Of a stretch of 64,000 nt of DNA, positions 7,230 through 36,537 are shown piece by piece. The stretch comes from an uncultured Actinomycetes bacterium. GTDB taxonomy: Bacteria; Actinomycetota; Actinomycetes; S36-B12. The translations under genes were made by a program, and so were the position numbers. The stretch's first letter is position 1. The number at the start of each line of letters is the position of its first letter. The notes beneath the pieces were generated by a model. The model ran no database searches and was not told the DNA's origin. It saw only the letters and a list, made by a program, of their open reading frames with translations. Location of the stretch: the NCBI GenBank assembly GCA_903960135.1, contig CAJBZP010000022.1, forward strand, positions 771 through 64,770, given 5' to 3'.

Positions 7230-7457
7230 TTACTCGTCATTCTCAAAGCAGGCAAACGCGATCCAGCACGAAGCGGTGTAAGAGGGTTTTTGGGTTTTGC
7301 CGATACCGGCCACGGCGGAACGCGCCCAACCCACCCCAAGTGCGAGTCGGTCAGACGGGGTTGAGCGAATACCCAAGGGGAACACGCGGGGAGCCGAAAC
7401 GCAACAACAAATGATCGACGGTCTAGAACCAACGGGGCAACCCCCATGAACGCCCAC
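7230..7457 (-). CDS. small-ORF family copy 1 (divergent, start codon uncertain)
   Basis: C-terminal 40 aa (SDRLALGVGWARSAVAGIGKTQKPSYTASCWIAFACFENDE) align with the ORFs at 21079..21246 and 27823..27990. Possible starts are GTG 7457 (75 aa) or GTG 7385 (51 aa). Neither has a good SD. Confidence 0.5.
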   Translation of the reverse strand: MGVHGGCPVGSRPSIICCCVSAPRVFPLGIRSTPSDRLALGVGWARSAVAGIGKTQKPSYTASCWIAFACFENDE

Positions 7458-15123: not shown

Positions 15124-16108
15124 GTCTTGGGGCGGGGTGGTGCTCACACTGCAGTTCGCGGATGGTCCCGCTCTTGCTACGCATGACGATTGAATGGGTG
15201 GTGGGGCCGTCTGGGCCGAAGTGGACCCCGCGCAGGAGATCACCGTCAGTGATGCCAGTGGCGCAGAAGAAAATATTGTCACCGGTAACCAGATCATCAG
15301 TTGTCAGTACCCGGTCTAGGTCGTGCCCGGCAGCAATAGCCTTTTGTCGTTCCTCCGCATCACGTGGCCAAAGGCGGGCCTGGATGGTGCCTCCGAGGCA
15401 GGCCATCGCGCAGGCGGCAATGATGCCTTCGGGGGTGCCCCCGATGCCGGCTAGCAAGTCAACGCCGGTGCCTGGCCGTGCGGCCATAATGGCCCCGGCT
15501 ACGTCGCCGTCGGTAATGAATTTGATGCGGGCGCCAGCTTTACGCACGTTCTCGACAAGTTCTTCGTGTCGGGGGCGATCAAGGATGCAAACGGTCAAGT
15601 CAGCAATGCTTTCGCCCTTACGTGCAGCTATCTGCTCCAGGTTCCAGGCGATTGGTGCGGTGATGTCGATGACATCTGCGCATTGGGGCCCGACTACGAG
15701 TTTTTCCATATAGAAAACCGCACTCGGGTCGTACATGGCCCAGCGCTCCGCGACGGCAATGACGGCGATCGCATTTGGCATCCCCTTTGCCGCAAGAGTG
15801 GTGCCATCGATGGGATCGACGGCCACGTCGGCTTCTGGCCCGGTGCCATCTCCCACCCGCTCGCCGTTGAAGAGCATGGGAGCATCATCTTTTTCGCCTT
15901 CACCGATCACGACAACGCCGTTCATCGACACGCTGCCGATCAGCGAGCGCATGGCGTTAACGGCGGCCGCGTCGGCACCATTTTTGTCACCTCGGCCGAC
16001 CCAGCGCGCAGCCGCGATTGCCGCGGTCTCGGTGACCCGAACTAATTCCAGAGCCAGGTTGCGGTCAGGTACTTCGCCGCCGGCTACAGAGGTATTCGCA
16101 GCGCTCAT
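15107..16108 (-). CDS. glpX: class II fructose-1,6-bisphosphatase
   Basis: Strong GlpX-like sequence ([25 protein letters not shown]). ATG at 16108 follows GGAGG. Confidence 0.9.
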
Positions 16109-16162
16109 CTTGGCCTCCATCGGGGGAGTCTAGCCGCTGGCCGCGGCGCTATCGCGCCTTTA

Positions 16163-16732
16163 GTGTTGATGCAGCATCATTGTCTGGTGACCACACCCCA
16201 GCCGACCGGGCGACCCAATGCCCGAATGCGCCAGAGCGTTGCCGACATGGTGTGGTCCATGGGTTTGGTGCTGGCCCTGATCGGCGTAATTATGCTCGTT
16301 ACCCTCCGGCCGCAACCTGATGCGGTGAAAGTCGTTGACCCAACGCAGGTGTTGATAGCCGCTCGGGCCTTGGCCCCGTTCCCGGTATTGGTGCCCGAGG
16401 GTCTAGACGGATATCAGGTCACGAGCGCGAGGTGGCAGGAGACTGCGAAATCTGGTGGTGCACTCGTGCTGCACCTTGGGTACGTGACCCCGGGCAACCA
16501 GTACTTACAGGTCAGCCAGTCGGCGGCAACTAGCGGCGAGTTCATCGCGGAGCAGACTGCTGGCGGTATTGTGGTTGAGCAAATACGCATCGACGGTGCG
16601 CAGTGGCAATTATATGAAACTGCCGAGCGGATCTCATTAGTGCTGCTTGGTGACGAGGTCATCACGGTGGTTAGCGGTACGGCGACCCGAGAAGAACTCG
16701 AGCAGGTCGTGCGGTCCTTGAAGCCGAACTAG
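16163..16732 (+). CDS. DUF4245-like membrane-anchored protein
   Basis: Single N-terminal TM helix. Divergent from glpX, as in other actinobacteria. Family call is from memory. Confidence 0.55.
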   Translation: MLMQHHCLVTTPQPTGRPNARMRQSVADMVWSMGLVLALIGVIMLVTLRPQPDAVKVVDPTQVLIAARALAPFPVLVPEGLDGYQVTSARWQETAKSGGALVLHLGYVTPGNQYLQVSQSAATSGEFIAEQTAGGIVVEQIRIDGAQWQLYETAERISLVLLGDEVITVVSGTATREELEQVVRSLKPN

Positions 16733-16941
16733 TCGGGGGCCTTTGCCTGCTCTAGTCGGGCTCGGGTGGTGTTGAGCCAGCCCTGGCAAACGGCCGCAAG
16801 TTCTTCACCGCGCTCCCAAAGGGCCAAGGACTCCTCGAGCGTGAGACCACCGGCTTCGAGTTGCTGAACAATCAGCGAGAGTTCATCGCGCGCGGCTTCG
16901 AAACTCGGGTTTTCGACACTTTCTGGTTTCTTGCTGGTCAC
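16729..16941 (-). CDS. xseB: exodeoxyribonuclease VII small subunit
   Basis: 70 aa with FEAARDELSLIVQQLEAGGLTLEESLALWERGEEL. Overlaps the xseA stop. Confidence 0.85.
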   Translation of the reverse strand: MTSKKPESVENPSFEAARDELSLIVQQLEAGGLTLEESLALWERGEELAAVCQGWLNTTRARLEQAKAPD

Positions 16942-18086
16942 GCCTTCTCCTTCATTCGGGTTGCGGCAAAACGCCCCTTGGCTAAGCGAATATCAACTAT
17001 CTGATCGTCTTTTACCTGTGACTCGTCGCGCACGATCGCACCATCACCGGCGAGAACTATCGCGTACCCACGATCTAGAGTCGCAGCCGGCGACAGTGCG
17101 CGAACCTGCGCGGCTAGGTGCGCGATCTGGGCTGCCGACTTTTCGACCAGATGGGTGATAACCGTCGTCATTCTTCTGCGATGATCCTGGATCTTGGTGG
17201 CTTCGCGTTCGAATTGGTTCATCACCGAGACCCGTGCTCGGTTGCGCAGGGCGAGGACGATGGACTCCTGCTCGACAAGTGAAGGCACCACTCGCTTGGC
17301 CGCATCGGTGGGTGTTGATGCGCGTAGATCCGAGACAAAATCCAATAGTGGCGCGTCCTGCTCGTGACCGATAGCGCTAACAATTGGTGTCAAGCAGTTA
17401 CTAACGGCGCGAACTAGACTCTCATTACTGAAAGGTAGAAGATCCTCAACGCTGCCACCGCCACGCGTAATGATGATGACATCAACGTCTGGATCTGCCG
17501 CCAACTGCTCAAGCGCACCGATTACCTCGGGCACGCACTGCACACCCTGCACCGCGACTTCGCGAATCTCGAATTCGATACCGGGCCACCGGTCGTTAGC
17601 GTTCACGGTGACATCGTGCATGGCGGCGCTGCCCCGACCGCAGATCAAGCCAATTTTACGTGGCAAAAATGGAAGGGGCCGCTTTCGCTCTGCCGCGAAG
17701 AGCCCTTCGGCGGCGAGTAGCGTGCGCAGGCGTTCGAGTTGGGCTAGTAGGTCACCGATGCCGACGGCACGGATTTGCTTGGCTCGAAACTGCAGGCTGC
17801 CTTTGCCGGTGTAGTACTCGGGCTGAGCAAACACGATGATGCGCTGCCCGGCGGCTACCGGTGGCTCGACCGCACCGAGCACTTTCGCATCGGCCACGAT
17901 CGTGATCGACATCTCCACATCTGGGTCGCGTAGCGTCAGATAGAACTGCCGCGCGCCAGGGCGTGGCCGGTATTCGGCCACCTGGCCGTCAATCCAGACG
18001 GCCCCGAGACGGCCAACCCATTCGGCAACCGCCCGCGAGACAGTGCGAACTGCCGCCGGTTCCTCTGGCGTGGTCTGCAGTGCCAT
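16938..18086 (-). CDS. xseA: exodeoxyribonuclease VII large subunit
   Basis: 382 aa with an OB-fold N-terminus and ITRGGGSVEDL motif. Confidence 0.9.
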   Translation of the reverse strand: MALQTTPEEPAAVRTVSRAVAEWVGRLGAVWIDGQVAEYRPRPGARQFYLTLRDPDVEMSITIVADAKVLGAVEPPVAAGQRIIVFAQPEYYTGKGSLQFRAKQIRAVGIGDLLAQLERLRTLLAAEGLFAAERKRPLPFLPRKIGLICGRGSAAMHDVTVNANDRWPGIEFEIREVAVQGVQCVPEVIGALEQLAADPDVDVIIITRGGGSVEDLLPFSNESLVRAVSNCLTPIVSAIGHEQDAPLLDFVSDLRASTPTDAAKRVVPSLVEQESIVLALRNRARVSVMNQFEREATKIQDHRRRMTTVITHLVEKSAAQIAHLAAQVRALSPAATLDRGYAIVLAGDGAIVRDESQVKDDQIVDIRLAKGRFAATRMKEKA

Positions 18087-18147
18087 TTGACCTCCTTTGC
18101 CAGCAGCAGCCTAAGCAGGGACCACCAGACGGCCGTACGATGGAGGG

Positions 18148-19122
18148 GTGGACAACCCGACCAAGAAGGTTCTGCTGGCTGAACCACGGGGTTACTGCGC
18201 TGGCGTCGATCGCGCGGTGGTGACCGTCGAGAAGGCTCTTGAGCTCTATGGCGCCCCGGTTTATGTGCGCAAGGAGATCGTTCATAACAAGCATGTCGTC
18301 CAAGATTTGCAAAGTCGCGGCGCCATCTTCGTTGACGAACTAGATGAGGTGCCGGAGGGCTCCACCGTGGTTTTTTCGGCCCACGGCGTGGCACCGATTG
18401 TGCATATGCAAGCCGCTGAACGGGATCTGAAAGCAATTGACGCCACCTGCCCGCTTGTTACCAAGGTGCACGCTGAAGTAAAGCGATTCGCAAATGAAGG
18501 ATTCCAGATCCTCCTGATCGGGCATGCTGACCACGAGGAGGTTGTCGGCACCGCCGGGGAGGCCCCCGAAGTCATTACGGTTGTGCAAGATGTGGCCGAA
18601 GCCGCCACGGTGGAGGTGTCCGACCCATCGAAGTTGATTTGGCTTTCGCAGACCACTTTGTCGGTAGACGAAGCGATGCAGACTGTGGATGTTTTGAAGT
18701 CAAGGTTCCCGAATCTACTCAGCCCGCCAAGTGATGACATCTGCTACGCAACCCAAAATCGCCAAGTAGCCGTCAAAGCAATGGCGGAACAATGTGATGT
18801 TGTCATTGTTGTTGGGTCTGCGAACTCCTCGAATTCGGTGCGCCTTGTCGAAGTCGCGCTTGAAGCTGGCGCCAGCAACTCGTACCGGGTAGACAATGCA
18901 ACCGAATTGCGCGAGGAATGGTTTAACCAAACTGCCACGGTAGGGGTGACCAGCGGGGCATCGGTCCCGGAGCAGCTGGTCGATGAGGTACTGGCTTGGT
19001 TGCAAGTGCGTGGCTACGGTTCGGTCGAAGTAGTTAAGACGGCCGAGGAGACGTTAATTTTCGCGCTGCCGCCGGAGTTGCGGCGGGATATGAAGGCCGC
19101 TGAGCAAGCCAAAGGCAAATAG
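18148..19122 (+). CDS. ispH: 4-hydroxy-3-methylbut-2-enyl diphosphate reductase
   Basis: 324 aa with [26 protein letters not shown] and SSNS motifs. Confidence 0.95.
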
Positions 19123-19126
19123 TCAA

Positions 19127-19891
19127 TCAGCGGCGCTGCGCGCGCACGATCACGATGATCAAGGCGATCAGTGTTGAGCCAATTACCCAGGCCCAGTTAT
19201 CGGCGAGGGTGAAGAACACCGCAACTGCTCGACCGATGAGCGCACCGCCCGTGCTGGTGACACCTATTTGACCGACCGTGATCGCCGCTAAGAAGAACGC
19301 AATGGGTGGTGCAATGACGGCGACAGCCAGATCGCCGGCTCGAACGGTTAATGCCGCGTAGCCACTTGAGATGAGCAGTGCCAGCCCGGTGACCAGCCCA
19401 AGGCCGGCGCCGGCGACGAAGATATCGATGCACCCAAAGAGCAACGTGCTGCCGATAACGATCGCGTATACGCCGATTGGCCGAAGCCCGCGGGTAGGTG
19501 TGGTGTTGGTGGTGTTGGTGGAGTTGGTGAAGGTACGTCGGGCTCTGCGCCCGCGCGGCTCATCAATTGCTACTAGCGCTGGTAAATCGGCATCTGGCGT
19601 GATCGCAATTACCGCAGGTGCGGTGCGACGCGGCGTTGGGGGCAGCAGGCCAGCAAGGGGTGCCGGCGCAACAGGTCGAGCCTCGCCGTCGATGACCTGC
19701 AGGGTGCGCAACTTGCCCACCCGGTCTGAACTGACGGCGGCAATCGCATCGGCCCCCGTGGTGGCCCGGCTACTGCGAAATAGCCGGCCGGTGTCAGCGG
19801 GCTGGCTATTCTTCGCCGGTGGCACATCATCCGGCGGCCGGAACAAGGAGCTGTATGCCTCGTCCTCGGCTGGGTTTGTTTCCTCGCTCAC
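19127..19891 (-). CDS. membrane protein of unknown function
   Basis: 254 aa with a disordered Pro/Ala/Thr-rich N-terminal half and four hydrophobic helices at the C-terminus. Contains a 9-bp coding repeat (NSTNTTNTT). Confidence 0.5.
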   Translation of the reverse strand: MSEETNPAEDEAYSSLFRPPDDVPPAKNSQPADTGRLFRSSRATTGADAIAAVSSDRVGKLRTLQVIDGEARPVAPAPLAGLLPPTPRRTAPAVIAITPDADLPALVAIDEPRGRRARRTFTNSTNTTNTTPTRGLRPIGVYAIVIGSTLLFGCIDIFVAGAGLGLVTGLALLISSGYAALTVRAGDLAVAVIAPPIAFFLAAITVGQIGVTSTGGALIGRAVAVFFTLADNWAWVIGSTLIALIIVIVRAQRR

Positions 19892-19904
19892 GGAAGTACG
19901 GTAC

Positions 19905-21017
19905 TCAACTGGCTAGGTGATTGGTGGTCGCCCGGTCACCGATGAATTCGCGCGCCGTCAAGACCCGCGCCTGCGCGGTGATGGCGGTGGCCTCTGGGAG
20001 CTCATCATCGGTGACACCGCATTCGTTAAATGCCCGAGTCGTGACCAGGACCCGCGTCTCAAGTGAGGCGACCGCTTTGTTGTAGTGCCCAACTGCGGAG
20101 TCCAGTGCGGAACCCACCTTGCTGAAGTGCTGGGCCAAAATGGCGATGCGTGAATGCAGATCGCGCCCAAGCCGAGAGATTTCCTCGGCGTTGGCGGCAA
20201 GGCGTTCGTGGCGCCAGGTCAGCGCGACGGTGCGCATGAGCGCAAACATCGTGGTCGGCGTGGCCGGCACGATATTGCGGCTGAATGCGTAATCCAGCAG
20301 GTCCGGGCGCATTTGCAAGGCGACTTCCAGGAGGGACTCCGACGGTAGGAACAACACCACGAACTCGACGTTCTGTGGCACATGTCGGCGGTAGTCCTTG
20401 CTATTTAGTGAGTCAATGTGGCGGATAACGTCAGTGGCGTGCTGGCCGAGCAGGTGCCTGACGGCGGCATCATCGGTTACTTGTTCGGCTTCTAGGAACG
20501 CCGCCAGTGGCACCTTGGCATCGACCACGATGGACCGATCACCGGCTAGGTGAATGACCATGTCGGGGCGAAGTGCCCCGCCGTCGCCTTGGTGCGTGGA
20601 CTGCTCATCAAAATCGACCCGGTCGAGCATCCCCGCGGCTTCGACTAGACGTCGCAATTGCATCTCACCCCACCGCCCACGGGCTCCGGTGCGACCAAGG
20701 ACCGCTGCGAGCCGCGAGGCCTCGCGCCGCACCTCGTCGGTTGAGCGCTGCAGTGATAGCACGTGCTGGCTCAGCTGTGTGGTCAGTTCCGTGCGCAAGG
20801 TGGCCTGGCCGGTGGTGGCTTCCTGCTGCTGCCGGGCGACCTGATCGGCGAGAGCGCCCAAAGAGGCGGTGACCGGAATCAGGGCCGACGCCCAATCGGC
20901 GGGCGCCGAGCGCCGAGCGGACCTGGCGGCGGCGGCGGCGCCAACCGCGATTCCCAGGGCCAAAACCAAACCGATACCGATGACGACAACTGCCAGTGCG
21001 GGAAGTGATGTATCCAT
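19905..21017 (-). CDS. rmuC: DNA recombination protein RmuC
   Basis: 370 aa with an N-terminal TM helix and coiled coil, then a RmuC nuclease-like domain (RPDMVIHLAGDRSIVVDAK). Confidence 0.85.
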   Translation of the reverse strand: MDTSLPALAVVVIGIGLVLALGIAVGAAAAARSARRSAPADWASALIPVTASLGALADQVARQQQEATTGQATLRTELTTQLSQHVLSLQRSTDEVRREASRLAAVLGRTGARGRWGEMQLRRLVEAAGMLDRVDFDEQSTHQGDGGALRPDMVIHLAGDRSIVVDAKVPLAAFLEAEQVTDDAAVRHLLGQHATDVIRHIDSLNSKDYRRHVPQNVEFVVLFLPSESLLEVALQMRPDLLDYAFSRNIVPATPTTMFALMRTVALTWRHERLAANAEEISRLGRDLHSRIAILAQHFSKVGSALDSAVGHYNKAVASLETRVLVTTRAFNECGVTDDELPEATAITAQARVLTAREFIGDRATTNHLAS

Positions 21018-21078
21018 GGCTCAAGGGTCCCAGCAGGGTCTGACAGTTACCGCCTTCGACACGGTTGCGATCGGTTAA

Positions 21079-21246
21079 CTACTCTTCATTACCCTCAAAG
21101 CAACTACCGTTATAGGCAGAGATATAACCTGAGGGGCTCGAGGTGCCGCCGATTCTGCCGGCACCCGGGCGCACCCACCCAACACTTAGGGCCAACCGGT
21201 CACTTGGTGCCGAGCAAATTGGCGCGGCAACTTCACTCTTCGACAT
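21079..21246 (-). CDS. small-ORF family copy 2 (55 aa, below the ORF-track cutoff)
   Basis: ATG at 21246 follows AAAGGAAATCAA. An in-frame TAA 7 codons upstream fixes the N-terminus. Product is MSKSEVAAPICSAPSDRLALSVGWVRPGAGRIGGTSSPSGYISAYNGSCFEGNEE, about 32/55 identical to copy 3, with mainly synonymous changes in conserved blocks. Confidence 0.65.
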   Translation of the reverse strand: MSKSEVAAPICSAPSDRLALSVGWVRPGAGRIGGTSSPSGYISAYNGSCFEGNEE

Positions 21247-21333
21247 TTGATTTCCTTTACTAAGTTAACCCGCTGCTTGCGGCTATCACCAATGAGAACA
21301 CCGCTAGCACCTAATGGCAATGACCCGACGAGA

Positions 21334-22750
21334 CTCACGAAAAGTGCCCGCGAAACACTCTCCGTGCCTCACGTAGGAATGCCCGCGTAACGGTGAGCAT
21401 TCTTAGGCATGAGAAATGGGTTATCGATGACGTCTCGTGCCGAGATCACCACCAAGTACGCGAAGGTTTATGCGAAGGCTTCGAAGAAGGACAAGGGCCG
21501 GATCCTGACCCAGGTGATGGGGGTGACGGGTTGGTCGCGGGATAACGCCCGCCGCCGACTTACCTCGGCCGCGAAGCGGCCGCCAGGTGGTGGTAGGCAG
21601 GTCGCGAAACGGGCCCGAAAACCGAGGTCACCCAAGTTCTCCTATGACGCCGTGAAGTTGCTGCAGCGGGTGTGGGCAGCCTCAGGTGGCCAATGCGGGA
21701 AGTACCTCGCGGTTTCGATGCGCATCCAACTCGACGGGCTAGAACGCCACGGTGAGTTGGTCGGCGGCGTTAACCGTTACTCCGGTGCGGTGCGCCTAGA
21801 ATTGTTGGCGATGAGTCCGGCGTCGATCGACCGGTATTTGAAGCCGGCGAAAGCCACCGATCAGATCCGAGGTGTCTCGACTACGAAGGCGTCGCCGCTG
21901 CTGAGGTCCTCGATTCAGATCCGTAGGGCTACTGATGAGGTCGAGGCTGAGCCGGGGTTCTTCGAGGGTGACACGGTCGCGCACTGTGGGCCAACGCTGA
22001 AGGGCGAGTTCGCCCGGACGCTGAACCTCACTGATGTCCACACCGGGTGGGTATTCACCCGCACGGTGCGTAACAACGCCCACGTCCACATCCTCGGTGC
22101 GCTCAAAGCTGGCGTTGAACAGATCCCGTTCGAGGTTACCGGCCTTGACTTTGATAACGGTAGCGAATTTCTCAACAAGGACGTGATTAAGTGGGCTGGC
22201 GATATGGAGATTTTCTTCACCAGGTCCCGGCCCTATAAGAAGAACGATCAGGCCACCATCGAGTCGAAGAACAATCATCTGGTGCGCAAATACGGGTTCT
22301 ACTACCGCTACGACACCGAGGTTGAACGCACCGTGTTGAACCGGCACTGGAAACGGGTCAACGACCGGTTCAACTACCTGACCCCGACGAAGAAGCCGGT
22401 CGGGTTCGGCGCCGACCGGGGTGGCAGGCGCAAACGTCTCTACGACGATCCTGCGACGCCACTGGATCGGCTCATCGCCGCGAAAGTATTGTCCCCAGCC
22501 CAGGTAGAAGAACTCCTCGCATACCGAGACTCGTTAAACCCCGCCAAGATCGCCCGTGAGATCTCCGAACTACAAGTCATGCTCTTGAAACTAGCCAAGA
22601 ACAAGACCGAGCAGCTCTACCTCGCCAGCTTCCCCAGCGCACTGCCCGACATCCGCAAAGGCATCCGGATCAAAGCCTCATGAGCACCCACATTTCGCGG
22701 GCATATTTAATTGAGGCACCGACCAAGTTTCGCGGGCAATTTGACTTGAG
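21334..22750 (+). mobile_element. insertion sequence, about 1.4 kb, single DDE (rve-type) transposase
   Basis: Imperfect terminal inverted repeats of about 60 bp. Each carries two TGCCCGCGAAA/TGCCCGCG boxes and a GTGCCTCA box. End coordinates are approximate and no clear target duplication was found. Confidence 0.75.
21409..22683 (+). CDS. DDE transposase, integrase-core (rve) type
   Basis: 424 aa with an N-terminal HTH region and catalytic-triad candidates FEGDTVAH, LDFDNGSEF and QATIESKNN. IS family not assigned. Confidence 0.85.
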   Translation: MRNGLSMTSRAEITTKYAKVYAKASKKDKGRILTQVMGVTGWSRDNARRRLTSAAKRPPGGGRQVAKRARKPRSPKFSYDAVKLLQRVWAASGGQCGKYLAVSMRIQLDGLERHGELVGGVNRYSGAVRLELLAMSPASIDRYLKPAKATDQIRGVSTTKASPLLRSSIQIRRATDEVEAEPGFFEGDTVAHCGPTLKGEFARTLNLTDVHTGWVFTRTVRNNAHVHILGALKAGVEQIPFEVTGLDFDNGSEFLNKDVIKWAGDMEIFFTRSRPYKKNDQATIESKNNHLVRKYGFYYRYDTEVERTVLNRHWKRVNDRFNYLTPTKKPVGFGADRGGRRKRLYDDPATPLDRLIAAKVLSPAQVEELLAYRDSLNPAKIAREISELQVMLLKLAKNKTEQLYLASFPSALPDIRKGIRIKAS

Positions 22751-22794
22751 GCACTACGTGACCAAGCGGGGAAAATCTTGCTTTTCGCCGGGCA

Positions 22795-25521
22795 CTACGG
22801 CTGGGCAGCGGCCGTTGGCTGGAGAGCGGCGAAAATTAGTGGTGGGGCAAATGGCAAGTCTCGAAACCGGACGCCGGTCGCATCGGCAATGGCATTGGCG
22901 ATCGCCGGTGCCACCGGGTCGATCGGCGGCTCGCCTGCGCCTTTGGCACCAAATGGGCCGAATTTATCTGCCGTGCCCGGCACATAGACCTCTACCTTGG
23001 GTGCGTCCGCGAAGTTTGGGATGCGGTACATGCGTAGACCGGGATTGAGTACCTCCCCACGTGGACCATTTTGGAACCATTCGGTAACTGCCCCGCCGAT
23101 ACCCATGACGACGGCTCCTTCAACCTGCCCACGCAGGGCCATGGGGTTGATCACGGTGCCGGCATCCACCGCATGGGCCACCTGCAAGAACACGATATCC
23201 CCGGTGGTTGTATTAATCGCGAGCCGCACGCCATGCACATTGAATCCATTGCTAATCGGTGATCCGTACGCTCGTCTTGCCTGCGCCAAGGTCACACCAG
23301 CGTCTTCGGCTGCGGCGAAGAGTTCAACAAGGCTGACGGAAGCTTTACCGGACCGAACTTCGTCTGCTCCCAATACACAGTCATTTGGTTCCACTCCCAG
23401 GTATCGGGAGGCGAAATTGACGATTTTCAACTGCAATGCTTGGGCGGCGAGCGCCACGGCCTTGCCTGCGACATTAAGTCCAGCGCTGGCGAAAGCCCCG
23501 GTGTCCCAGCCACTTGCGGCAGTGTCGCCGTGCACCACGGTGACACGATCGACGGTGGTGTTCAAGGCGGTTGCGGTGAACTGTGCTTGGGCGGTAGTAG
23601 TCCCGTTGCCAAACTCGCAGGTGCCGACATTGACCTGGTAGGTGGAGTCCGCGAGGAGCGTGACACTGGCTTCAGATCGATGTTCGGTGGGTGGCGAGGA
23701 CTCGAACATCGAAATTGCATAACCGGAGCCGACCCGCCAATCGTCGCCACTTGGTGCCTCTACTCCATTGCCGCGCGCCATCGCTGTTTCTACCAGTTCC
23801 ATGCACTCGTCTAGGCAGTAGCCGCCCAATACGTCATCACCGGGGCTGCGCTCGATTCCAACATCGTCGCCTGGCACCACGACATTCCTGCGCCGCATTT
23901 CAAGGGAATCAATGCCCAGTGCCGAGGCTAGTTCATCAATTGCGCATTCAATTGCGAATGTTGTCTGAACCGCGCCATACCCGCGCATTGCCCCAGATGG
24001 CACATTGTTCGTGTAGACGGCGCGGCCGTCGTACTGCTTGTTATTGCACCGGTACCACGTCATTGAATTGCTGCTCGCATAGAGAACTTCGCCACCGTGA
24101 TTGCCGTAAGCACCGGTGTTTGACGTCACGTCCATCTTCATGGCGGTCAAAGTGCCGTCGGCAAGGGCCCCAAGCTTGACGATTACCCGCATCGGGTGTC
24201 TTGGTGCTGCTCCGTAGAACTCTTCTTCACGGGTAAACTCCCACTGCACCGGCCGGCCGGTGTCAAGGGTGGCAAGTAGGCACAGGTCTTCGGTAAACAC
24301 CTCCTGCTTAGATCCGAAGCCACCGCCGACCCGCTTGCTAAAGAGGCGGATTTCGCTCGCATGCAGGTCAAATAGATAACAGAGTTTGGCTTGGGCCAAG
24401 AATGGCGTTTGCGTGCTCGTTCGGACTTGAAGCACGCCGGTTTCATCGATCCAGGTGACACTGCCATGGGTTTCAAGGGGCGCCTGAGCCATCCGCGGCG
24501 TGTTATACGTTGCCTCATGGACGATGTGAGCCTGCGCGAATCCGGCCTCGACGTCACCGCGTGACTTGTTGAACTCAAGGAGAATGTTGCTTGCAGGGCG
24601 CTTCAAATGCCCATCGAGTGTTGAGCCTTCATGTAGCAGGGGTGCACCCGGTTGCATGGCCGCCGAGGGGTCAAAGACAGCCGGCAACTCCTGCCACTCG
24701 ATAGCCACCTGCCGGCACCCCTCTTCGGCAGCGCCAACGCTCTCTGCAACAACAGCCACCATGCGTTGCCCGATGAACCGGGCAACTTGGTCGAGCATGC
24801 GGGTGTCGTCGGGGTCTACCAGGTGGTTCTCGTGGCCGGCGGTGTCGTAGAGCTTGTCGGGTACGTCCTCCCAGGTGTAGACGGCAACAACTCCCGGTAC
24901 TGCCTTCGCGGCACTGGTGTCGATGGAGAGCACCCGCGCATGTGCATGTGGTGAGCGCACCACCTTCAGGTGAAGTAACCCGGTGATGTCGTGGTCGAGG
25001 GTGTACTGGGCGGTGCCGGTGACGATGCCCCTGCCGTCGGCCGGGCCGACACTGGCCCCCACCGCTTTTCCTGCGGCTGGCGCCTCGTCTATGTTCGTGA
25101 CGGCGTTAAGTGCATCCTCAATTGCTCGATAGCCGGTGCACCGGCAAAGTGACCCGCGCATTGCCGCCGGCAGGTCAGCTCGTTGCTCTTCGTTCATCCC
25201 TGCACAAGTCATGATCATGCCCGCCGTGCAGAAGCCGCATTGGAATGCGCAGGCTTTAAGGAACTGCTCCTGCATCGGATGCAGGTTGTCGCCGTCGGCT
25301 AGACCTTCGATGGTGGTGATCTCATGGCGTTCGGCCTGCACGGCTGACACCAGGCAACTGTGAACTGGCTCACCGTCAAGCCAAACCGTGCACGCACCGC
25401 AGTCGCCGCTGTCACAACCCTTCTTGACACCATGGAGACCCAACTCGCGCAAAAAGGTGCGTAAGCACTGACCGGGGTTCGGTGCCGCTTCGAAGGTTCG
25501 CCCATTAACTCTGATAGCCAT
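22795..25521 (-). CDS. molybdopterin-dependent hydroxylase (xanthine dehydrogenase family), fused [2Fe-2S] and MoCo-binding subunit
   Basis: N-terminal CDSGDCGACTV and CGFCTAGM ferredoxin motifs followed by aldehyde/xanthine dehydrogenase a/b-hammerhead and MoCo domains. ATG 25521 (MAIRVNG) is the likely start. Confidence 0.85.
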   Translation of the reverse strand: MAIRVNGRTFEAAPNPGQCLRTFLRELGLHGVKKGCDSGDCGACTVWLDGEPVHSCLVSAVQAERHEITTIEGLADGDNLHPMQEQFLKACAFQCGFCTAGMIMTCAGMNEEQRADLPAAMRGSLCRCTGYRAIEDALNAVTNIDEAPAAGKAVGASVGPADGRGIVTGTAQYTLDHDITGLLHLKVVRSPHAHARVLSIDTSAAKAVPGVVAVYTWEDVPDKLYDTAGHENHLVDPDDTRMLDQVARFIGQRMVAVVAESVGAAEEGCRQVAIEWQELPAVFDPSAAMQPGAPLLHEGSTLDGHLKRPASNILLEFNKSRGDVEAGFAQAHIVHEATYNTPRMAQAPLETHGSVTWIDETGVLQVRTSTQTPFLAQAKLCYLFDLHASEIRLFSKRVGGGFGSKQEVFTEDLCLLATLDTGRPVQWEFTREEEFYGAAPRHPMRVIVKLGALADGTLTAMKMDVTSNTGAYGNHGGEVLYASSNSMTWYRCNNKQYDGRAVYTNNVPSGAMRGYGAVQTTFAIECAIDELASALGIDSLEMRRRNVVVPGDDVGIERSPGDDVLGGYCLDECMELVETAMARGNGVEAPSGDDWRVGSGYAISMFESSPPTEHRSEASVTLLADSTYQVNVGTCEFGNGTTTAQAQFTATALNTTVDRVTVVHGDTAASGWDTGAFASAGLNVAGKAVALAAQALQLKIVNFASRYLGVEPNDCVLGADEVRSGKASVSLVELFAAAEDAGVTLAQARRAYGSPISNGFNVHGVRLAINTTTGDIVFLQVAHAVDAGTVINPMALRGQVEGAVVMGIGGAVTEWFQNGPRGEVLNPGLRMYRIPNFADAPKVEVYVPGTADKFGPFGAKGAGEPPIDPVAPAIANAIADATGVRFRDLPFAPPLIFAALQPTAAAQP

Positions 25522-25534
25522 AGTTTGATAGTCC

Positions 25535-26356
25535 TTAGGAGGCCGAAAGTTCGGTTCGGATTTGCTCGGCAAAGACATACGTCAGATGACGTCGGTGGGC
25601 TGGTGTCCCGTTTGGGTCATCGAAGTAGAGCTTTGCGGGAATCAGTTGGTCCACCGCTTTGCGAACTTGCTCGCTTGAGGGCAGACCGGTGAAACGTAGA
25701 TGGACCGGGTGGATCGTGGCAGCGCTCACAGTGATGAGAATTTCACTTGACTTCGTATCGTGAGTTCCCACGAGGTAGATGCTCGAGCGCCCATGCTTTG
25801 TCAGTGAGAACCTGCGGAGGGTGTAGTTCCTCATAAGCGAGGCCATGGGTAGGTGGATGGATCTCAGTAGCTCACCCGGTTGCAAGATGTTCGTGTTGTC
25901 TCCGGTGACGAAGTTGATCGCCGGCACAATTCGGTCGCTCCCATCCATTGCGAGCAACTTGTACTGGGCCTCTAGCGCCGCACCCATCGTCACCATCGGC
26001 CCGGCGGGCAAGGAGGCGCAGATATTGCCACCCACAGTCTGCCGATTCCACACTTTGAAGCTTGCGAGGTACTCCTCGACACTTTGTCGAAGGAATGGCC
26101 CTGCGCGCCAGTGTTCGGGTGGCTTGAATTCATGTAACTCGGTGATACCGCAGGTGGCGGCAATCTCCAGTCCGGCTTCACTTACGGTAATGCTCTGCCA
26201 GCCGGTGTCTGAAAGATCGCGCAGGCGGCGCAGGTGCGGCATCGGCTGACTGAATATCAAAGTGCCACCGGCGAGCCAGGTATCGCCATCTCGCCAGTCG
26301 TGGAACAGGTCCTGCGCGGGAGGCACGAGCATATCCGTCACGGTCGGCTGATCCAC
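25535..26356 (-). CDS. FAD-binding subunit of the molybdenum hydroxylase (CoxM/XdhB-like)
   Basis: 273 aa in FAD_binding_5-like layout, immediately upstream of the FeS/MoCo gene. Confidence 0.75.
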   Translation of the reverse strand: MDQPTVTDMLVPPAQDLFHDWRDGDTWLAGGTLIFSQPMPHLRRLRDLSDTGWQSITVSEAGLEIAATCGITELHEFKPPEHWRAGPFLRQSVEEYLASFKVWNRQTVGGNICASLPAGPMVTMGAALEAQYKLLAMDGSDRIVPAINFVTGDNTNILQPGELLRSIHLPMASLMRNYTLRRFSLTKHGRSSIYLVGTHDTKSSEILITVSAATIHPVHLRFTGLPSSEQVRKAVDQLIPAKLYFDDPNGTPAHRRHLTYVFAEQIRTELSAS

Positions 26357-26472
26357 GGCCCGAATATGCCATAAAGAGGTGGTGCCGGCAATGAGGAAAT
26401 TGCTGGAGCGGTGCGAGCCGTGACCAACCCAACTTGTTCGACTAACCGCACTAACGCATAAGGTGGCCGATT

Positions 26473-27546
26473 GTGGCTTTAACCATTGGCATCGTAGGGC
26501 TCCCGAATGTGGGTAAATCCACCCTATTTAATGCACTCACCAAGAATGATGTGCTCGCTGCCAACTACCCGTTCGCAACCATTGAGCCGAACACGGGCGT
26601 CGTGGGCGTACCCGATCCGCGACTTGGTGTCCTCGCCAAGATCTTCGGGTCGGAACGTGAGTTGCCAGCAGCCGTGACGTTCGTCGACATCGCGGGAATC
26701 GTGAAAGGGGCCAGTGAGGGCGCGGGCCTTGGAAATAAGTTCTTGGCAAATATCCGGGAGTCAGAAGCGATCTGCCAGGTGCTGCGAGCGTTTCATGACG
26801 ATGACGTGGTGCACGTCGAAGGTCGAGTATCGCCCGAAGAGGATATGGAGACGATCAATACTGAGTTGATCTTGGCTGATCTCCAAACACTTGACAAGGC
26901 GATCCCGAGGCTGGAGAAAGAGGCACGAACTGATAAAACCAAAGCCGCCAACTTGGCTGCCGCGCAAGAGGCGCGTGCACTACTTGATGGCGGCACGACA
27001 ATTTTCGCATCGGGTATCGACACTTCGCCGCTGCGCGAATTGTTCTTGCTTACCGCTAAGCCGTTCCTGTATGTGATCAATGTCGATGAGCAAGAACTCG
27101 CCGATGCGGATTTTCAAAAACGCATGCGGGAACTCGTTGCCCCTGCTGAGGCTGTCTTCCTTGACGCGAAATTGGAGGCGGAACTCGTCGAACTACCCGA
27201 CGATGAAGCACTTGAGTTATTGCAGTCGGTCGGCCAGGTCGAATCTGGGTTACATGCGCTCGCGCGTGTCGGGTTCGCCACATTGGGTTTGCAGACCTAC
27301 CTGACCGCAGGCCCCAAGGAAGCCCGTGCCTGGACCATTCCGATCGGTGCAACCGCGCCTGAGGCCGCCGGGGTAATCCACACCGACTTCCAGAAGGGCT
27401 TCATCAAAGCCGAGGTTGTGTCCTTCGATGATCTAGTCGCCAATGGCTCGATGGCCGAGGCCAAGGCCAAGGGCAAGGTTCGCATCGAAGGCAAGGAATA
27501 TGTCATGGCCGATGGTGACGTGGTCGAGTTTCGCTTCAACGTCTGA
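26473..27546 (+). CDS. ychF: redox-regulated ATPase YchF
   Basis: 357 aa with GIVGLPNVGKSTLFNALT, DIAGIVKGASEG and a TGS-like C-terminus. Confidence 0.95.
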   Translation: MALTIGIVGLPNVGKSTLFNALTKNDVLAANYPFATIEPNTGVVGVPDPRLGVLAKIFGSERELPAAVTFVDIAGIVKGASEGAGLGNKFLANIRESEAICQVLRAFHDDDVVHVEGRVSPEEDMETINTELILADLQTLDKAIPRLEKEARTDKTKAANLAAAQEARALLDGGTTIFASGIDTSPLRELFLLTAKPFLYVINVDEQELADADFQKRMRELVAPAEAVFLDAKLEAELVELPDDEALELLQSVGQVESGLHALARVGFATLGLQTYLTAGPKEARAWTIPIGATAPEAAGVIHTDFQKGFIKAEVVSFDDLVANGSMAEAKAKGKVRIEGKEYVMADGDVVEFRFNV

Positions 27547-27548
27547 AG

Positions 27549-27764
27549 CTATGGGGTTTTATTGGCCCGCCTAGTGTTTCCCTCACAAACTAGATGCCCA
27601 GAGATACCTGCAAGTCCCCCAGATTGTTCACGGATTGCGGACTGGTTGCGGATCGAGGGGCATGCCTCAGCCCCATAGTCGTCGTGCCAGTCCAGATGAA
27701 ATCTGCCAAGGCAACCACTGGGGGCGGCCCAGTTCACTACCGTGAAAAACTGGCCCCCAACCAA
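27549..27764 (-). pseudogene. possible degenerate tandem copy of the small-ORF family
   Basis: Track ORF ends ...SAIREQSGGLAGISGHLVCEGNTRRANKTP. Plus-strand segments TTTCCCTCACAAAC (27577..27590) and GATACCTGCA resemble TTACCCTCAAAAC and GATACCACCTGCA of copy 3. It has an internal deletion and lacks the family stop position. Confidence 0.3.
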
Positions 27765-27822
27765 TATCGGTCAAGGGCCCGCAACAGGGTTTAAACACCG
27801 CACCTCACGGTAGGGACAGGTG

Positions 27823-27990
27823 CTACTTCTCATTACCCTCAAAACAGTAGCTCACACACCCGGCACCGTAAGAGGAGGGCTTTAGGGTGCCACCGATACC
27901 ACCTGCACCTGGGCGCACCCAATCAACACCGAGTGCGAGCCGATCGGTTGGCGCTGAACTTGCTGGGGTAGCAATATCAATATTTGGCAT
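27823..27990 (-). CDS. small-ORF family copy 3 (55 aa)
   Basis: ATG 27990 follows GGGAGCACCAA. Product is MPNIDIATPASSAPTDRLALGVDWVRPGAGGIGGTLKPSSYGAGCVSYCFEGNEK. In the track it appears only as the tail of a 249-aa shadow ORF (27823..28572). Confidence 0.7.
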   Translation of the reverse strand: MPNIDIATPASSAPTDRLALGVDWVRPGAGGIGGTLKPSSYGAGCVSYCFEGNEK

Positions 27991-30369: not shown

Positions 30370-31353
30370 TTGAGTAAGACGGGGGTCATCGACGGCCCTG
30401 CGGCCTTAGCCTCCGACGAAGTTGCCAGTCGATCCCTTCGGCAGATTGTGTGGGCGCGCCTGCGCCGCGATCGGTTGGCGATGGTCTGTTTGATCATCTT
30501 GATCTTTTTGTACTTGATTGCGATTTTTGCCCCCCTTATCTGCGACCTGCTGGGCGTTGACCCATATTCATTCGACAAGGAGTCCATCAGCGATAGCGGC
30601 GGCGGCCCGGTGGGCGCATGGGGCGGTATCAGCACCGAGCACCCACTCGGGGTCGAATGGGGAACAGGGCGCGATATTTTCGCGCAGTTGCTCTATGGGC
30701 TGCGCATCTCGCTACTGATTGCCACCACCGCGACGATCCTCACGGTCTTCTTCGGCACCGTCCTAGGCATTGTCTCTGGATACGCGCGCGGCAAGACCGA
30801 CGCCGTCATCGGCCGGATCATGGATCTAATTCTTGCTTTCCCGTTCCTGTTAATCATTTTGGCGCTGTCCGGGGTCCTGACACAGCGCCTCACCGATCTG
30901 GGTGTGCCTGATGGCAACCCATCGCGCATCATGTACTTGATCATCGTGTTGAGTATTTTTGGCTGGCCTTATCTGGCGCGCATTGTTCGTGGGCAAGTAT
31001 TGAGTGTGCGCGAGCGTGAATTTGTTGAAGCTTCAATCGCGATGGGGGCTAGCCGCTACCGCATCTTATTTAAGGAAATCCTGCCTAACCTGTGGGCACC
31101 GATTTTGGTCTACGCAACTTTGACCCTGCCAACCTACATCGGCACCGAGGCGGCGCTGTCATTTCTTGGAATCGGCGTATTACCACCGGATACTTCATTC
31201 GGTGGCATGTTAGGTAATTCGGTGAGTTACTTCAGTGTGGTGCCCTCCTATCTGTTTATTCCAGGCACGGTCCTGGTTGTCTTGGTAGTGACGTTTAACC
31301 TCGTCGGGGACGCTGTCCGCGATGCCTTAGACCCCCGTGCCGGACGGGTGTGA
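30370..31353 (+). CDS. peptide ABC transporter permease (OppC/DppC type)
   Basis: 327 aa with six TM helices and an EAA-like loop (REREFVEASIAMGAS). Confidence 0.85.
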   Translation: MSKTGVIDGPAALASDEVASRSLRQIVWARLRRDRLAMVCLIILIFLYLIAIFAPLICDLLGVDPYSFDKESISDSGGGPVGAWGGISTEHPLGVEWGTGRDIFAQLLYGLRISLLIATTATILTVFFGTVLGIVSGYARGKTDAVIGRIMDLILAFPFLLIILALSGVLTQRLTDLGVPDGNPSRIMYLIIVLSIFGWPYLARIVRGQVLSVREREFVEASIAMGASRYRILFKEILPNLWAPILVYATLTLPTYIGTEAALSFLGIGVLPPDTSFGGMLGNSVSYFSVVPSYLFIPGTVLVVLVVTFNLVGDAVRDALDPRAGRV

Positions 31354-31467
31354 GCCACATGCTCACGCTTTCGGCAGCTAACAAGGTCCGTAACCGCGTT
31401 GCCGGAAGGCGACGGGGACGCGATGTCATGGGCGAAGGAAACTTAGCCCGAATTATTGGGAGGAAAT

Positions 31468-33216
31468 ATGGGCAAGGCCAATAAGAGCCTGCGCTTAGCT
31501 GCGGTAGGTGCAGTCGCTGCACTTGCACTTGCCGCCTGCGGTGGAGGCAGTAGTTCAACTGATGCAAGTGGCGGTGCTGAACCCACCAAGGGTGGCACCC
31601 TTTATTACCTAACGAATGCGGAGCAGTTCGATCAGATCGATCCGCAGCGCATCTACACGGGTGAGGATCTGGCCTTCTTCAATGGCACGATCTATCGGAC
31701 CCTCACCGCGTACAAGTTCTCCCCGGATGCGGCTGAAGGCACGTCGATCGTTGCTGACCTGGCAACTGACACCGGAACTGCGACAAACGGTGGAAAGACT
31801 TGGGAGTTCACCATCCGTGATGGGGCTACCTTCCAAGATGGTTCCCCGGTTACCTGTGCAGACGTTGCCTATGGCACCTCGCGTACCTTTGCAACCGATG
31901 TCATCACCGGCGGCCCGACCTACGCCATCTCGATGCTGGACATCCCAACCCTCGAGGATGGTTCATCGGCCTATAAGGGCCCGTACACCGGCGAGGGCCA
32001 GGAGCTGTTCGATAAGGCGGTTACCTGCTCGGCCGATGGCAAGACCATCACGTTCAATCTGAGCCGCCCGGTTCCGGATTTCAACTACACGGTAACCCTG
32101 ACCGCCTTCGCACCAGTACCAAAGGCATCGGATACCGGTGAGAAGTACGGTGATGCGCCGGTCTCCTCCGGCCCATACAAGATCGAGTCGAATAAGAACG
32201 GCAAGGGCGGAAAGATGGTCCTGGTTCGTAACGACAAGTGGGATCCCGCCAGCGATGATTACCGCAAGGCCTATCCCGATACCTGGGAAGTTGACTACGG
32301 CCTTGATGTCAAGGTGATCGATCAGCGCCTCATCACCAGTTCGGGCAATGACGCCACCGCACTCGCCAACGGCGTTGAGCCGGAGCAATTGGGAGTGATC
32401 TACAAGAGCGCCACCGAAGCCAATCCGGAGTTCGCGGGTCGGGCTATCAGTGAGCTGGATCCGTATGTGCGGTACCTCGCGATCAACGTGCAAAAGGTGC
32501 CGAACTTGAAGATCCGCCAGGCAATTGCGGTGGCACTTGACCGTGATGCACTGCGCAAGAATGCCGGTGGCGATTTTGCCGGTGACTATGCAGATGGCGT
32601 GATCAAGCCCAATATGGGTGTCGACTATGCGCCTAGCGGCATGTGGGACAGCCTGCTCGGGGGCAAGATCCCAGATGCCGGCGATCCGGAGCTGGCGAAG
32701 AAGCTGATCGCCGAATCCGGTGAAGCCGCACCGACGATCACCTTCGATTACCCGCAGTCGCCAACTGCTGACAAGGCAGCAGCGATTGTTGTCGATTCAC
32801 TCGGCAAGGCTGGCATCACCGCCAAGCCGAACCCGATTGAGCCAGGCCAGTACTACGGCGTGGTCTTCGATCCGGAGCAAGCACATGAATTAATCAACGC
32901 AGGTTGGGGTCCTGACTGGCCGAACGCATCGACCATCATCCCCGAACTGTTCACACCAACGGGTGGCTTCAACCTCTCGCAGTATGACAACGCGGAGTTC
33001 AACGCCGCTGTCGAAGCGGCGAAGATCGAGCCAGACCGCGCAAAGCAGGCCAAGATGTGGCAAGACCTGAACACCTTGGCGATGAAGGATGTCGTTGTCG
33101 TGCCAACCAGGTTTGGCCGTGAGCAGCGCATCGTTGGCAAGCAGATTGGCCCGGTGTACCTGTGGCCCGCCTACGGCTCATGGCCGTATGGCGACATGTA
33201 CGCGGTTCAGCAGTAA
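31468..33216 (+). CDS. peptide ABC transporter substrate-binding lipoprotein (family 5)
   Basis: ATG 31468 follows GGGAGGAAAT. Lipobox LALAACGG. SBP_bac_5-like body. Confidence 0.85.
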   Translation: MGKANKSLRLAAVGAVAALALAACGGGSSSTDASGGAEPTKGGTLYYLTNAEQFDQIDPQRIYTGEDLAFFNGTIYRTLTAYKFSPDAAEGTSIVADLATDTGTATNGGKTWEFTIRDGATFQDGSPVTCADVAYGTSRTFATDVITGGPTYAISMLDIPTLEDGSSAYKGPYTGEGQELFDKAVTCSADGKTITFNLSRPVPDFNYTVTLTAFAPVPKASDTGEKYGDAPVSSGPYKIESNKNGKGGKMVLVRNDKWDPASDDYRKAYPDTWEVDYGLDVKVIDQRLITSSGNDATALANGVEPEQLGVIYKSATEANPEFAGRAISELDPYVRYLAINVQKVPNLKIRQAIAVALDRDALRKNAGGDFAGDYADGVIKPNMGVDYAPSGMWDSLLGGKIPDAGDPELAKKLIAESGEAAPTITFDYPQSPTADKAAAIVVDSLGKAGITAKPNPIEPGQYYGVVFDPEQAHELINAGWGPDWPNASTIIPELFTPTGGFNLSQYDNAEFNAAVEAAKIEPDRAKQAKMWQDLNTLAMKDVVVVPTRFGREQRIVGKQIGPVYLWPAYGSWPYGDMYAVQQ

Positions 33217-33223
33217 TCAAGCC

Positions 33224-33252
33224 GGAGGGCGGGTGCTCAGCACCCGCCCTCC
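33224..33252 (+). terminator. perfect 13-bp GC-rich hairpin after the binding-protein gene (attenuator or mRNA stabiliser, no U tract)
   Basis: GGAGGGCGGGTGC-TCA-GCACCCGCCCTCC, 8 nt after the stop codon. Confidence 0.45.
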
Positions 33253-33315
33253 GCGACTGCCGCCAAGTCACCTGCGACGCGATTGCGCGTCCCTAGCGGA
33301 TAGGCCGATTCGAAG

Positions 33316-36535: not shown

Positions 36536-36537
36536 AG

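Follow-up and report, generated by a model that had tools for sequence, protein, structure and literature searches.

Copy 2, one of three related genes in the window (the whole 64-kb stretch of DNA that was analyzed), is a genuine coding gene and a real member of a conserved peptide family. It probably encodes the ribosomal precursor in a RiPP pathway of the cyanobactin type that belongs to uncultured freshwater Actinobacteria, represented by metagenome-assembled genomes (MAGs) labeled acSTL or 'Ca. Nanopelagicales'. We have fair confidence that the family as a whole consists of precursor peptides of a cyanobactin-type cluster, with most copies acting in trans. We also lean toward a broader proposal, in which this lineage would run a prochlorosin-style combinatorial library on cyanobactin-type chemistry, with one PatA/PatG-YcaO-ThcOx(-sulfotransferase) cluster, at least 8 to 34 trans precursor genes per genome, and essentially unrelated cores among paralogues.

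RESULTS

A short gene upstream of rmuC

Direct reading of the minus strand found the 55-codon ORF that a first-pass annotation had reported, with its ATG at 21246, and the other elements claimed for it held as well: a Shine-Dalgarno sequence 6 nt ahead of the ATG, an in-frame TAA 7 codons upstream, and a stop codon separated by exactly 61 nt from the ATG (21017) of rmuC on the same strand. The 55-aa product is MSKSEVAAPICSAPSDRLALSVGWVRPGAGRIGGTSSPSGYISAYNGSCFEGNEE. The parts of the gene and its downstream neighbor are as follows.

21079..21246, minus strand: copy 2, putative precursor-peptide gene, 55 codons, TAG stop at 21079-21081; full-length match to the family HMM (108 bits)
21253..21257, minus strand: Shine-Dalgarno sequence AAGGA of copy 2; the family consensus before the ATG is GGAG
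21130..21246, minus strand: leader region, aa 1-39, MSKSEVAAPICSAPSDRLALSVGWVRPGAGRIGGTSSPS, delimited by family alignments and the codon-position test
21100..21129, minus strand: predicted core, aa 40-49, GYISAYNGSC, with the conserved Cys as its last residue; the segment is hypervariable in the family, and its bounds are predicted by analogy to PatE
21082..21099, minus strand: predicted follower, or C-terminal recognition sequence, FEGNEE, near-invariant in the family
21018..21078, minus strand: spacer between copy 2 and rmuC, without a terminator; its 3' ~45 nt (GTGTCGAAGG..TGTCAGACCCTGCTGGGACCCTT) are the conserved upstream region of rmuC
19905..21017, minus strand: rmuC (Pfam RmuC), downstream and possibly cotranscribed

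Family membership, also asserted in the first-pass annotation, was borne out by tblastn of the window, which recovered copy 3 (27826-27990, minus strand, 58% identity, E = 6e-17) and copy 1 (approximately 7233-7364, minus strand, E = 1e-8), and by a search of 5.8 billion proteins, which returned 273 relatives of copy 2. Among the relatives listed, nearly all are 53 to 60 aa long and align over the whole query, and no entry carries a Pfam domain or is named anything more specific than 'hypothetical protein.' Pfam and NCBIfam models matched nothing in the three window copies, even at E ≤ 10.

The copy 2 protein (P0001) recurs unchanged on 30 contigs, drawn from several samples. Its leader holds every residue that is invariant in the family (P9, R17, L20, V22, W24, R26, I32, G33, P38, and S39) and ends in TSSPS, where the family consensus is TLNPS; the last residue of the predicted core is C49. 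The same core is present in P0002, and L010, a locus of the closest MAG (SYJA01), carries an intact orthologue whose ORF is 87% identical and whose core counterpart is GYLSGYNGS; the cores of paralogues are unrelated. The L010 orthologue has an E51A change, which removes the near-invariant Glu of the follower. For copy 2, the window and L010 give a pN/pS of about 0.64, a value that comes from just 12 differences; for rmuC it is 0.19.

The family has a conserved leader, a hypervariable core, and a conserved C terminus

We built a family HMM and ran it on the six-frame ORFs of all fetched loci. This yielded 190 copies, and 146 of these are both distinct and full length; 30 of the 190 matches fall short of the full profile, some ending well inside a contig and others cut by a contig end. 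The 146 copies start with ATG (132) or GTG (12) in all but two cases (144/146), stop with TAG in 131 cases, and measure 52 to 65 aa apart from two outliers. In the codon alignment, entropy at codon positions 1, 2, and 3 is 0, 0, and 1.34 bits at P9, 0.06, 0, and 1.18 bits at R26, and 0.06, 0, and 1.54 bits at P27. Because codons of invariant residues vary almost exclusively at the third position, selection acts on the protein, and an open frame arising by chance over a repetitive DNA or RNA element is excluded.

The leader follows the consensus M(S/P)xx(E/D)(V/I)xxPxSSAPxDRLALGVGWVRPGxxxIGGTLNPS; its conserved part spans 39 aa and ends in NPS, or (N/S)PS across copies. The core that follows is 7 to 19 aa long, and its entropy is close to the maximum at each of the three codon positions; 114 of 125 extracted cores are distinct. 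Cores contain much Gly, Ala, Ser, Cys, Pro, and Tyr and almost no Lys, Glu, or Asp. The C-terminal end is an almost invariant C-F-E-G-N-E-E immediately before the stop, with the Cys that closes the core conserved in 142 of 146 copies, the F in 145, the E in 138, and the G in 140. As in cyanobactin precursors, then, a conserved leader precedes a hypervariable core that lies between N- and C-terminal recognition sequences, and a heterocyclizable residue, here Cys, stands last in the core, before the C-terminal site, where cyanobactin precursors have such a residue or Pro. Judged from the alignments, this succession of conserved leader, hypervariable core, and conserved flanking sites is the logic of a RiPP precursor.

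Family genes are followed by a conserved 3' untranslated region, CACC.TTCCCTACCACTAGGTGGGGTGTTTAAACCCTGTTGCTGGCCCCTGACCGCT...GGGGCC (consensus of 141 copies; e.g., window 27735-27822), with two hairpins, the second being a terminator; several distinct conserved 5' regions occur as well. These units look like cassettes, and their conserved 5' and 3' untranslated flanks may serve as recombination handles through which cassettes spread and are reshuffled. A diversity-generating retroelement was considered and dropped, since the cores vary in length and at all bases and no reverse transcriptase occurs among the annotated flanking genes; a CRISPR-like array, Flp pilin, Pup, metallothionein, and a Cys-leader attenuator were likewise dropped on sequence or architecture.

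Other copies in the window and their genomic positions

The two paralogues of copy 2 differ in their state of preservation.

27823..27990, minus strand: copy 3, intact paralogue with core SYGAGCVSYC (tblastn and HMM)
27752..27779, minus strand: intrinsic terminator of copy 3 (z = -2.9; 12-bp stem), within the conserved 3' untranslated region of the family
7230..7385, minus strand: copy 1, divergent paralogue (HMM positions 6 to 55, 79 bits)

Copy 3 has both the conserved 3' untranslated region and its terminator; copy 2 has neither. In copy 1, the first ~11 residues of the leader are swapped for unrelated sequence, the ATG is missing, and a GTG at 7385 is a possible start; its middle reads WARSAVAGIGKTQKPS and its follower CFENDE. 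Copy 1 may represent a precursor that is truncated or in decay.

Beyond ychF, at the position of copy 3, one to three family copies occur in five other MAG species (L038, L040, L059, L071, and L087). Their leaders are near-identical and their cores completely different, so the position is conserved while the core turns over. We rejected the idea that the rmuC-upstream position of copy 2 is common to six MAGs: only L010 shares it, and the others share the copy 3 site. In five more distant MAGs (e.g., L038/L059/L071/L087), ychF directly adjoins rmuC as its divergent neighbor; the FAD-binding and xanthine-dehydrogenase-like genes together with copy 2 (the window 21247-26356 region) are thus an insertion specific to the window/L010 lineage.

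The window (59.6% G+C) contains no Rfam family along its whole length and no tRNA or tmRNA detectable by ARAGORN, and the genes examined around the copies are ordinary housekeeping genes. An Opp-type oligopeptide ABC transporter and a DPPIV_N/S9 peptidase (window 30370-38625) lie a few kilobases from copy 3. We considered this peptidase and transporter, and a Thioredox_DsbH protein near copy 1, as maturation partners and set them aside, as none has a specific link to the family.

An insertion sequence upstream of copy 2

The region upstream of copy 2 contains the following features.

21326..22758, plus strand: insertion sequence (IS) of 1433 bp, with an rve transposase and inverted repeats; absent from L010
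21409..22683, plus strand: DDE/rve transposase ORF, 424 aa (Pfam rve)
21321..21325 (left) and 22759-22763 (right), no strand: target-site duplication TGACC, recognized by comparison with the empty site in L010
21292..21320, minus strand: promoter-like block TTGCCA-N17-TCTCAT, kept between the IS and copy 2 (seven-paralogue alignment; collinearity with L010)

An IS had been proposed to end at about 21334, about 88 nt upstream of the copy 2 ATG. The element is real, and its end lies slightly closer, at 21326 and 79 nt from the ATG; it sits 31 nt past the stop of the xanthine-dehydrogenase-like gene. The insertion was confirmed by a check that the first-pass annotation had suggested, comparison with a relative free of the IS: L010 is collinear on both sides (window 27549..22772 with L010 1136..5912, and window 21325..16001 with L010 5922..11238) and carries the uninterrupted site, AATGGCAA-TGACC-AAACGTC. 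A transposase, terminal inverted repeats, a target duplication, and an empty site in a relative are thus all present. The terminal inverted repeats are imperfect, and each end has two subterminal TGCCCGCGAAAC repeats. The IS occupies the same site in all five contigs of the population, which come from different samples. Its transposase scores 33 to 36 bits against IS30/IS481 models, far below their cutoffs, and the element may belong to a poorly described IS group.

The same comparison speaks against the suggestion that the IS displaced the native promoter of copy 2 or replaced it with an outward-reading one. Between the IS and the ATG, 79 nt remain that align collinearly with L010 (69/80 identical) and retain the promoter-like block, which, as TTGCCA-N17-TCTCAT or 'CGGTGTTCyCATTGG,' recurs upstream of seven paralogues in other genomes; the IS separates just the distal 'CGTTT' edge of this block. 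The transposase gene is divergent from copy 2. The block is not a canonical sigma-70 match, and a strict sigma-70 scan found no promoter on either strand in the upstream region of copy 2 or of its L010 counterpart and none reading outward from the IS. With these 79 nt kept and the block retained, the IS has probably not removed the promoter-like block of copy 2. L010 has no detectable terminator between the xanthine-dehydrogenase-like gene and the copy 2 orthologue; in the window, the IS would block read-through from that gene into copy 2.

On the downstream side, the first-pass annotation had considered read-through into rmuC possible, and the sequence agrees: within the 61-nt spacer, no site resembles a terminator and no structure is significant (z = +0.84), which makes read-through plausible. 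Relatives that do not carry copy 2 nevertheless conserve the 45 nt ahead of the rmuC ATG; these are therefore the control region of rmuC itself, and rmuC has no need of the copy 2 transcript.

We also observed that the sequence upstream of rmuC (window 21018-21062, minus strand) has the form GGTGTCGAA-N9-AATGTCAGACCCTGCTGGGACCCTT-N5-ATG, conserved across six genomes. It resembles the mycobacterial RecA-independent DNA damage promoter (TGTCRgtg-N8-TAnnnT) and may drive a leaderless transcript.

Occurrence of the family in freshwater actinobacterial MAGs

In a scan of one genome per species, the family occurred only in about eleven freshwater actinobacterial MAGs, from Lakes Baikal and Mendota, Rimov, ELA, and Swiss lakes, which are labeled acSTL, 'Ca. 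Nanopelagicales,' or just Actinomycetota. A profile search of 1.84 billion representative proteins returned just 60 clusters, all of the same family, and no distant relative of known function. Most of these MAGs carry 8 to 34 copies, counted in the fetched loci alone, and the two MAGs with the fewest fetched loci carry 2 and 6. Copies stand alone or form tandem arrays with as many as nine members, and many copies lie at contig ends. Two lake MAGs with dozens of copies (CAMBQX01 and CAMDKJ01; L018, L025, L036, L042-44, etc.) are titled 'Bifidobacterium breve,' almost certainly a taxonomic mislabel.

Family members adjoin a cyanobactin-type cluster in other genomes

A divergent subfamily (alignment A2) exposed the link between the family and a biosynthetic cluster. 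One member, P0197, and a second one flank a cluster on three contigs, L095-97, that codes for a cyanobactin oxidase of the ThcOx type carrying a nitroreductase domain, for two subtilases (PatG_D plus PatG_C), and for ABC exporters; tblastn with the L098 proteins located a PatB-like ORF there as well. Homologues of the cluster protease in Ca. Nanopelagicales and other actinobacterial MAGs are named 'PatA/PatG family cyanobactin maturation protease' by NCBI (PGAP).

Longer contigs place the cluster downstream of rpoBC, in the order DUF4190 membrane protein, PatA-like protease, PatB, 128-aa protein, second PatA/PatG-family protease, ThcOx/SagB, 264-aa protein, sulfotransferase-PqqD fusion, and fused YcaO cyclodehydratase, the last being seen in clusters where the contig extends far enough. 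The two proteases, both with PatG_D and PatG_C, score 719 and 447 bits against TIGR03895 (cutoff, 421), and PatB scores 48.9 bits, just under its cutoff of 55. The oxidase combines ThcOx (PF22767) with a SagB dehydrogenase domain (TIGR03605). The YcaO protein matches TIGR03604 with 251 bits (cutoff, 219) and the TOMM leader-binding domain TIGR03882 with 88 bits (cutoff, 36.9).

The best PDB matches of the cluster proteases are PatA/PagA. The first protease matches PatA/PagA structures with 289 bits versus 132 bits for the PatG macrocyclase, and the second matches PatA/PagA and PatG structures about equally. When the second protease is aligned with PagG (4h6x), query residues 56 to 62 stand opposite chain residues 66 to 107, so that the query lacks about 40 residues in the stretch from the catalytic Asp to the His. 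In published macrocyclase structures, the capping helices lie in the insert between these two residues. The absence of this insert makes macrocyclization doubtful, and the product may be linear.

Family members stand directly beside the PatA-like gene on L095-97 (two), L105 (one), L106 (three), and L109 (two). L105, L106, and L109 came from a metagenome scan with the protease. The L105 copy sits directly upstream of the PatA-like gene; the L106 copies are of the window's own type (...TLNPS...CFEGNDE), and L109 has a GC content of 68%. These linked clusters form four independent contig groups whose enzymes are 41 to 100% identical to one another. At nine other cluster loci (L098-L104, L107, and L108), no family member lies within the available flanks of up to 10 kb, and the substrate must therefore be encoded elsewhere, in trans. 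In one MAG, SHUQ01 (Baikal-deep-G14), the cluster (L098) occurs together with six scattered family loci (L030, L039, L045, L059, L061, and L089). No cluster or maturation gene occurs in the 64-kb window or in the 89 family loci fetched first; adjacency to PatA/PatG-family proteases is thus a property of the family elsewhere, absent for copy 2 and the other window copies within these 64 kb. The clusters contain no other candidate precursor that matches the family profile, and hhalign of the family against PatE detected no homology (probability, 0.07%).

The sulfotransferase of the cluster is fused to a PqqD-like (RRE) domain (L098 17505-18824 and orthologues). This fusion suggests leader-guided sulfation of Tyr/Ser-rich cores, a tailoring step that is not known from cyanobactins.

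Proposed maturation of copy 2

By analogy with the patellamide pathway, the 39-aa leader would be bound by the leader-binding domain of the fused YcaO cyclodehydratase. Core Cys residues, and possibly Ser/Thr, would be converted to azolines and then to azoles through the ThcOx-type FMN dehydrogenase. The PatA-like subtilase would cleave after ...(N/S)PS, and the second PatA/PatG-family subtilase would separate the azole that the conserved Cys yields from the FEGNEE follower. For copy 2, the predicted product would comprise roughly 10 residues from GYISAYNGSC. One cluster would process in trans the precursors, which lie alone or in tandem arrays across the genome; the genome of the window presumably carries that cluster outside the window. 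Copy 2, between the xanthine-dehydrogenase-like operon and rmuC, would probably be expressed from its own retained upstream block and, because the usual terminator of the family is absent, could read through into rmuC.

Alternative explanations for copy 2 and its family

A functional, trans-encoded precursor is the reading of copy 2 that we rank first and that the sequence comparisons make most likely. Its main rival, which we consider unlikely, accepts copy 2 as a family member and sees in it a decaying orphan that arrived with or beside the xanthine-dehydrogenase insertion, was left poorly expressed by the IS, and goes unprocessed. The high pN/pS of copy 2 relative to rmuC, the nonconsensus recognition site TSSPS, the E51A change in the L010 orthologue, the lack of the family's 3' untranslated region and terminator, and the cut that the IS makes at the distal edge of the upstream block would all fit decay, as would the restriction of the rmuC-side position to the window population and L010 and the incompleteness of 30 of the 190 HMM matches across the family. 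However, the ORF is intact with all invariant residues in place, and it is identical across its 30 contigs and their several samples; its core is kept in P0002 and nearly so in L010, although paralogous cores are unrelated; and the pN/pS estimate derives from only 12 substitutions.

A different objection concerns the family rather than copy 2. Its members might be some other small protein, such as a signaling peptide or the product of a self-spreading cassette, that is not a substrate of the cluster and came to lie beside it through general landing in intergenic regions. At least 190 copies in many unrelated housekeeping contexts, the conserved, cassette-like flanks, the majority of cluster loci without an adjacent copy, and the missing PatE homology speak for this reading. 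We nonetheless find this improbable: adjacency is always right at the PatA-like gene, in four divergent cluster lineages including the one with 68% GC; the leader, the hypervariable core, and the Cys with its acidic follower form the layout that PatA/G, YcaO, and ThcOx need; and no rival precursor matching the family profile is found in the clusters. Least credible of all is that copy 2 is not a gene. Strong nucleotide conservation of some codons and of the flanking untranslated regions, along with the absence of Pfam and NCBIfam matches, could be taken for a conserved DNA or RNA repeat that happens to contain an open frame, but the third-position variation at invariant residues effectively refutes this, start, stop, and length are conserved in 146 copies, the Shine-Dalgarno sequence is conserved, and the window has no Rfam family.

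DISCUSSION

The precursor family proposed here combines traits of several known systems. PatE has a conserved leader, an N-terminal protease site ending in Ser, and a core whose terminal Cys is followed by AYDGE (...C|AYDGE). Like PatE/TruE, the family has a conserved leader, a hypervariable core, an N-terminal site ending in Ser, and an aromatic-acidic-Gly sequence right after the core-terminal Cys (...C|FEGNEE); unlike them, it has one core per precursor, and it lacks detectable homology to PatE. The linked cluster likewise resembles cyanobactin machinery (PatA, PatD, PatG, and ThcOx) in its two TIGR03895 proteases, PatB, ThcOx, and fused YcaO, and departs from it in a second protease without the macrocyclase insert and in an additional sulfotransferase-PqqD fusion. 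The hosts, too, differ from those of cyanobactins, being Actinobacteria with dozens of precursor genes, most of them far from the cluster.

In marine picocyanobacteria, prochlorosins arise from many ProcA precursors with near-identical leaders and hypervariable cores that are modified by one ProcM. The family parallels this arrangement in its near-identical leaders, hypervariable cores, and genes scattered over a small planktonic genome, presumably served in trans by one enzyme set. The predicted chemistry is different, with azole formation and subtilase cleavage in place of lanthionine formation through LanM, and prochlorosin leaders are of the NHLP/Nif11 type and their precursors lack a conserved C-terminal follower. 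LAP pathways share the azole-forming YcaO and dehydrogenase chemistry and proteolytic release with no obligatory macrocycle, which fits the absent macrocyclase insert; in contrast to the family, their precursors lie inside the cluster, and LAP clusters have no PatA/PatG-family proteases.

A 2015 survey of thiazole/oxazole-containing natural products treated cyanobactins as products of Cyanobacteria with precursors encoded within the cluster (PMC4603692). In the limited set of publications that our literature search covered, there was no description of this family, of actinobacterial cyanobactin precursors, or of an expanded, dispersed repertoire in Actinobacteria. The protease names in these MAGs were already in place through PGAP; for the precursor family, we found no Pfam-A or NCBIfam model, name, or paper. 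Within the reach of our searches, the system would have no precedent, either as an expanded, trans-acting version of the cyanobactin type or as one from outside the cyanobacteria.

If confirmed, the system would be a second, independent example of a streamlined planktonic bacterium that follows the prochlorosin strategy, and would offer a natural library of short azole peptides together with promiscuous enzymes for peptide engineering. For annotation, it would mean that genes of 50 to 60 codons, below common ORF-size cutoffs, hide the substrates of clusters that are already labeled.

It would also account for frequent contig breaks at these repeats, as many MAG contigs terminate within a family copy. 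At L006-L009, one tandem array of three to five copies, depending on the sample, stands on three different left flanks (asd, an alpha/beta-hydrolase gene, and a TetR gene), through either recombination between arrays or assembly chimeras at the repeats. An alpha/beta-hydrolase gene (Abhydrolase_1/S33-like) lies directly upstream of arrays in two nonorthologous contexts (L027/L037/L043 and L007/L049), and the L027 and L043 arrays contain a fragment of a T2SSE ATPase.
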